Source of the DNA: a phage
Sequence record: PX104380.1
DNA length: 64,000 nt
Reading direction: 5' to 3' (one strand)
A program made the position numbers and the translations under genes. Numbering within the stretch: the first letter of the stretch is position 1; each line of letters starts with the position of its first letter. The notes below the pieces were generated by a model. The model was not told the origin of the DNA. It worked only from the letters and a program-made list of their open reading frames with translations, and searched no databases. Below, piece by piece: positions 41,873-42,331 of this stretch.

Positions 41873-42331
41873 TTATTTTAAATCATCTGCCCAATCGAAT
41901 TTAAGAGGCTCTTTGTATTCACGATCTAATACGACCGGAATTTGTACATCACCGCTAAATGATAAGGGCCCAACATTATAAGACAATGTTATATGCGGTG
42001 TGTAATCATCAAAATCATGTGTAGCACCTAGTGCCCGCGCATACATGTGTCGACAGCGCAAATATTCAGAATCTAGTACAAGTACAAGAGCCGATCCATC
42101 TTGTGTTTTCCATACTTCTAAATGCCCGGAAGAAGCTACTTCAAAACTTCCGCTTGATGGAACATACGGAACATTTACTCTTGAATAACATATGGTCGAA
42201 TGAATTTTTTCTCTAGGAACTGGATTAGGAACGCGTAAAGAGCGCTGAAGTTCTTCCAGCGCATCAAGTGTTAATTCTGAAAACTTAGCTGCTACATAAA
42301 GACCCGTTGAAAAGTCTTTAAATTCCATCAT
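41873..42331 (-). CDS. 57B: gp57B-position protein (152 aa), 2H-phosphoesterase-like; candidate Acb1 anti-CBASS nuclease
   Basis: Two H-x-T motifs (HSTICYS, HITLSY); position upstream of 57A; length as T4 57B. Confidence 0.6.

Follow-up and report, generated by a model that had tools for sequence, protein, structure and literature searches.

The window analysed here, a 64,000-nucleotide stretch of phage DNA (sequence record PX104380.1), very probably comes from a Tequatrovirus, a T4-like coliphage, and two of its open reading frames are with the same high confidence assigned from their sequences as orthologues of the T4 genes acb1 (57B) and acb2 (vs.4) (Table 1). The window was collinear with T4 from 31.9 kb to at least 80 kb of the T4 genome, in a comparison covering the window up to position 47921. 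Most blocks were 92-97% identical to T4, a few short blocks 85-88%, and the block containing acb1 had the highest value (97.1%). The nearest deposited genomes were also Tequatroviruses, among them FL33 and FL34 (99.3% over 2 kb), G4507 and BECP11. T4 itself is known to carry both acb1 and acb2 (PMC12657218), and the pair described here is of the textbook T4 type, already known, with nothing new in it. An earlier reading made from the sequence alone had proposed that the phage possesses both known anti-CBASS strategies. Both genes are indeed carried, but the wording "both known" is out of date, as further anti-CBASS families have been described, such as the protein Acb4 (PMC11722364).

Table 1. 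Positions of acb1, acb2 and their neighbours in the window, with the matches on which each assignment is based.
Feature	Position	Strand	Product or form	Matches	Location
acb1 (T4 gene 57B orthologue)	41873..42331	-	152 aa, ATG start; predicted 2H-phosphoesterase degrading cyclic oligonucleotides	99% to T4 NP_049750.1; PF23474; 7T26	
acb2 (T4 vs.4 orthologue)	31850..32116	-	88 aa from ATG; predicted cyclic-dinucleotide sponge	7UQ2; PF24729; PHROG 717	
gene 57A	42328..42570	-	tail-fibre assembly chaperone	PF17594 GP57, 168 bits; 97.5% to T4 57A	directly upstream of acb1
gene 1	42573..43295	-	dNMP kinase	PF21448, 355 bits; 97.9% to T4 gp1, residues 1-241	heads the co-oriented 1-57A-57B run
ipI	41516..41800	-	internal protein I	PF11634 IPI_T4, 173 bits; 84% to T4 IPI	downstream neighbour of acb1
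vs.5	32109..32330	-	73-aa form		upstream neighbour of acb2; stop overlaps acb2 start by 8 nt (ATGATTGA)
vs.3	31575..31850	-		97.8% to T4 Vs.3, residues 1-92	downstream neighbour of acb2

In a direct comparison with the T4 reference record, the 152-aa protein was identical to 57B/Acb1 at 150 of 152 positions and of equal length; the substitutions, from T4 to the window, are T81A and L145F, with no others. The Pfam Acb1 profile (PF23474) matched with 201.4 bits (cut-off 27), with residues 9-149 aligned to profile positions 1-143 of 144, and the PDB sequence search returned the Acb1 structures 7T26 and 7T27 (E = 5e-62). These matches bear out the identification as gp57B/Acb1 proposed in the sequence-only reading. 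At the DNA level, acb1 is 97.6% identical to T4 57B, with nine synonymous and two non-synonymous codon differences, the pattern expected under purifying selection. Homologues of the protein were found in 1,470 phage records. A divergent acb1 allele, about 70% diverged from that of T4, was considered and dropped: 7T26 and 7T27 are the Acb1 of Erwinia phage FBB1 (PMC9117128), and the direct comparison with T4 gives 99%. In T6 and AV112 a codon for I stands in place of the M1 ATG, and the start lies at M2; because of this, acb1 may really begin at its second ATG, at position 42328.

The features that define Acb1 are a tetrad (H44, T46, H113 and T115), four stacking residues (Y12, W74, F107 and W147), an adenine-contacting glutamate (E141) and a C-terminal lid formed by residues 145-152 (PMC9117128). 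All nine residues named in that study are present in the 152-aa protein at the same positions as in T4, and the lid is full length, reading FDWADDLK here versus LDWADDLK in T4, so that L145F is the lid's first residue. The family alignment comprised 12 homologues with identities from 99% to 40%, including T6 and RB49 as well as phages of Mosigvirus, Klebsiella, Serratia, Aeromonas, Acinetobacter, Vibrio and Stenotrophomonas. Y12 and the tetrad were invariant, E141 and W147 were conserved at 90% or more, and positions 74 and 107 were always aromatic. Position 145 was variable (L, F, N or S), with F145 found again in phage ECO95, and position 81 is A in FBB1. Because both substituted positions vary naturally among homologues, neither T81A nor L145F appears to be a reason for doubting the predicted Acb1 activity. 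FBB1 Acb1 served as structural template and is not the nearest relative: its 68% identity extends across about 141 residues with a single gap of one residue, and it has the same HxT/HxT tetrad, Y12, E141 and W147, and carries F74 and Y107 where the window protein and T4 have W74 and F107, aromatic in both cases. From this identity to 7T26, the 152-aa protein is predicted to adopt a compact 2H phosphoesterase fold.

The second gene had been assigned to vs.4 by gene order and size only, and that candidate assignment now has a basis in sequence. The 88-aa protein is identical to T4 Vs.4 at 83 positions (94%) and of equal length, and it matched the structure 7UQ2, which is T4 Vs.4 (E = 1e-52), the Acb2/Tad1 hairpin family PF24729 (70.8 bits, cut-off 27) and PHROG 717 (111 bits), the latter named as the family of Vs.4 homologues by Jenson et al. 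2023 (PMC10097602). The alignments of both proteins to their T4 counterparts, which the sequence-only reading had put forward as the check, thus revealed clear homology in each case. The mechanical ORF of acb2 continues to a TTG at 32152, but the start used in T4 corresponds to the ATG at 32116.

The five substitutions relative to T4 Vs.4 are G17S, L44F, N46S, C50D and F52L, and ten further codons differ synonymously. In T4 Acb2, cGAMP is contacted by Y8 and F82 (stacking), by H11, K23 and R79 (polar) and by S74; L29, A66, A73 and A77 are hexamer-interface residues, and T12, L60 and F33 come from a loss-of-function screen or mutational tests (PMC10097602). These 13 published residues are all unchanged in the 88-aa protein, and ten of them, including the pocket (Y8, F82, H11, K23, R79 and S74) and the interface (L29, A66, A73 and A77), were invariant across eight homologues with identities down to 56%. 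Each of the five substitutions lies at a position that is variable among the homologues, four of them at residues 44-52 in a hypervariable, indel-rich centre, and the identical allele was found in phage ECP52 (100%). An effect of the 44-52 cluster on oligomer stability is conceivable. Residues Y37, A57, L60, D61 and T64, which have been tied to the failure of T4 Acb2 to bind cA3 (PMC10312549), are also unchanged, and the window's Acb2 therefore probably resembles T4 Acb2 in not binding cA3, with a dinucleotide-only spectrum expected.

The substitutions could also be read as alleles shaped by an arms race, in which F145 at the lid hinge would shift the substrate range of Acb1 and the clustered surface changes at 44-52 of Acb2 would alter how the sponge protein is recognised by a host factor sensing it, with nucleotide binding kept. 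We consider this very unlikely. The evidence points away from it because position 145 of Acb1 and positions 44-52 of Acb2 vary freely among homologues.

The function proposed for the orthologous pair is taken from published work on T4. The T4 57B product was found by activity-guided fractionation as a 3'3'-cGAMP-degrading enzyme and named Acb1 (Hobbs et al. 2022, PMC9117128). Its deletion abolishes the cGAMP-degrading activity in infected cells, in which Acb1 activity is seen about 15 min into T4 infection, and T4 Δacb1 showed a more than 300-fold loss on CBASS hosts, with no effect on hosts without CBASS (PMC9117128). The enzyme cuts on the 3' side of adenosine in cyclic di- and trinucleotides, in a metal-independent reaction of two steps via a cyclic phosphate (PMC9117128). 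By analogy, the 152-aa protein would have a U-shaped pocket in which aromatic stacking on Y12, W74, F107 and W147 holds the cyclic di- or trinucleotide. E141 would read one adenine, and the C-terminal lid (145-152) would shut over the ligand. Acid-base catalysis by H44, T46, H113 and T115 would then be expected to cleave 3' of adenosine through a cyclic-phosphate intermediate, again independently of metal.

T4 Vs.4/Acb2 is a hexameric sponge that takes up three cGAMP molecules; it binds 3'3'-cGAMP with high affinity and inhibits CBASS effectors (PMC10097602), with a KD for 3'3'-cGAMP of approximately 84 nM (PMC10312549). The hexamer predicted here would likewise sequester three cyclic dinucleotides in pockets that lie between two protomers, with Y8 and F82 stacking on the ligand and H11, K23 and R79 making polar contacts. 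Acb1 and Acb2 would jointly prevent the activation of CBASS effectors, and the phage is predicted, on the model of T4, to resist CBASS signalling by 3'3'-cGAMP, cUA or cAAA. In T4, acb2 is required against a cGAMP-based CBASS of V. cholerae and is both needed and enough to set off the Panoptes guard system (PMC12657218). Acb2 activity should thus expose the phage to decoy-nucleotide guards of the Panoptes type, and restriction by such guards (PMC12657218) is expected because the nucleotide pocket of Acb2 is intact. This would be a host-range prediction of use in the choice of therapy phages.

Database names suggest a different role for the 152-aa protein, namely that it acts primarily in RNA repair as a LigT-like 2'-5' RNA ligase or 2',3'-cyclic phosphodiesterase, the cleavage of cyclic oligonucleotides being incidental. 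The RefSeq records of T4 and many relatives read "RNA ligase", PHROG 755 is described in the same words, one record is named "putative RNA 2',3'-cyclic phosphodiesterase", and the H-x-T/H-x-T signature is common to the whole 2H superfamily, LigT-like 2H phosphoesterases and 2'-5' RNA ligases sharing the two H-x-T/S motifs and the 2H fold predicted for the window protein from its homology to 7T26. However, in the Pfam search at E ≤ 0.01 no family besides PF23474 Acb1 matched the protein, and this includes RNA-ligase and LigT models; "RNA ligase" is a name transferred by homology at the level of the superfamily. The T4 protein, 99% identical, is the 3'3'-cGAMP-degrading activity found by fractionation, with cyclic oligonucleotides as its characterised substrate (PMC9117128) and a deletion phenotype that is specific to CBASS. 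We regard a primary role in RNA repair as extremely improbable and retain the Acb1 assignment. Among the matches listed, almost none of the Acb1 homologues were named Acb1 and most were called "hypothetical protein" or "RNA ligase"; for Acb2, all 30 of the homologues listed were "hypothetical protein". Because most deposited relatives carry one of these two labels, the practical benefit is that acb1 and acb2 can be named reliably. The value of the finding is mostly annotation, with little beyond.

Natural loss of Acb2 function has been reported (PMC12657218), through a binding-site mutation in T2 and an early stop codon in PaMx41, and one or both genes of the window might in the same way be decaying or inactivated, with L145F abolishing the function of Acb1 or the 44-52 cluster that of Acb2. 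Against this, each ORF is intact over its full length, none of the published catalytic, binding and interface residues has changed, and the substitutions fall at positions that are variable among homologues. Synonymous codon differences also outnumber non-synonymous ones (9:2 in acb1 and 10:5 in acb2), and the exact Acb2 allele and Acb1 F145 recur in other isolated phages. Decay of either gene was accordingly given hardly any probability.

As the sequence-only reading had noted, the 152-aa ORF carries two H-x-T motifs; a script found exactly two, at residues 44-46 (HST, within KIHSTICYS) and 113-115 (HIT, within PHITLSY). Two or more such motifs occurred in 1.7% of 200,000 composition-preserving shuffles of the protein and in three of the 70 ATG-initiated ORFs of at least 100 aa in the window. 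The two motifs alone are therefore weak to modest evidence, and it is homology that decides the Acb1 call. That they arose by chance in an ORF that is unrelated or does not code for protein, as these frequencies would allow, can be dismissed in view of the matches at E ≤ 1e-60 to Acb1 models, the solved structure and T4, and of the homologues in 1,470 phage records.

The local order around acb1 is gene 1, 57A, 57B and ipI, all on the minus strand, as in T4. The sequence-only reading had placed the 152-aa gene upstream of 57A; by the direction of transcription it lies 3' (downstream) of 57A, though at lower plus-strand coordinates. The TGA stop of 57A overlaps the ATG of acb1 (ATGA, junction GAAGAATGATGG), an overlap also present in T4, and because of this stop/start overlap the sequence suggests translational coupling of the two genes. 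Adjacency of 57A and 57B was annotated in seven of ten sampled homologue records, including those of Aeromonas, Acinetobacter and Vibrio phages, and two further records were unannotated. Taken together with T4, the window protein shares with T4 Acb1 its length, its position after 57A, the stop/start overlap, the tetrad, the stacking residues, E141 and the downstream intergenic region, and differs from it by T81A and L145F only.

Ahead of ipI there is a promoter-like site of the T4 early type (TTTACA-17-TACTAT, 41859..41831), in a scan in which the counts of such sites were not above chance. In the spacer between acb1 and ipI (41805-41872, minus strand) this site overlaps a hairpin-forming 9-bp inverted repeat, GATGAGGTA...TACCTCATC, and the repeat and nearly the whole spacer are conserved with T4. 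Scans for promoter and terminator consensus sequences around acb1 and acb2 found no more sites than expected from shuffled sequence, and T4-early-like sites were found only downstream of acb1. Since the counts were at chance level, no promoter of its own can be claimed for either gene; their transcription units are presumed to be those of T4.

Like its T4 counterpart (7UQ2), with which it shares length, neighbours, cGAMP-contact residues and interface residues and from which it differs at the five positions given above, acb2 lies between vs.5 and vs.3 and overlaps both neighbours. The start of vs.3 overlaps the stop codon of acb2 by 1 nt, as in T4. The arrangement on the other side differs: in the T4 record a 58-aa vs.5 (L001:3382-3558) ends 36 nt upstream of vs.4, whereas in the window the stop of a 73-aa vs.5 overlaps the acb2 start. 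The difference in length is due to a 1-nt indel, T4 having one C fewer in TTTCGCCGAG. The 73-aa form was recovered full length in relatives down to approximately 44% identity, and the vs.5 of the T4 record therefore looks like a frameshifted or mis-sequenced outlier.

Other parts of the window differ from T4 in gene content. At 33709-34182 (minus strand) a single 157-aa ORF matching Pfam DUF7412 (317 bits) replaces the denV-ipII-ipIII segment of T4 (T4 64.9-66.4 kb). It begins with MKTYQEF, as IPI does, and on this basis may be an alternative packaged internal protein. A denV orthologue was sought in the whole window and not found, the sole match being weak and limited to 46 residues. A cluster at 39466-40483 (minus strand) contains 11 tRNA genes according to ARAGORN (Arg, His, Asn, Tyr, Met/Ile(CAT), Thr, Ser, Pro, Gly, Leu and Gln), compared with eight in the T4 record; His, Asn and Tyr are the extra ones, and segB is missing from the cluster. 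Rfam confirmed ten of the 11, with tRNA-Tyr (39815-39901) below the gathering score, and at gathering thresholds it reported nothing besides tRNAs in the whole window.

Three minus-strand ORFs that are absent at the matching T4 positions (664-1551, 11264-12094 and 21688-22407) look from their sequences like homing endonucleases of the seg type. The ORF at 11264-12094, which replaces mobC, contains a NUMOD3 motif that scores above threshold and shares 50% identity with part of SegB; the one at 21688-22407 has a weak SegB match (27%). The ORF at 664-1551, between gene 45 and rpbA, is without a family match and has a C-terminal motif in common with the ORF at 21688-22407. The window lacks mobB and mobD as well as the intron of nrdD with its I-TevII, all present in T4, and nrdD is one uninterrupted ORF of 605 aa. 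In the region of T4 mobD/mobD.1, two tandem paralogous ORFs of 173 and 180 aa are found (24962-25483 and 25490-26032, minus strand), both of which carry the N- and C-terminal T4_y05I domains ("y05I-like putative transcription factor").
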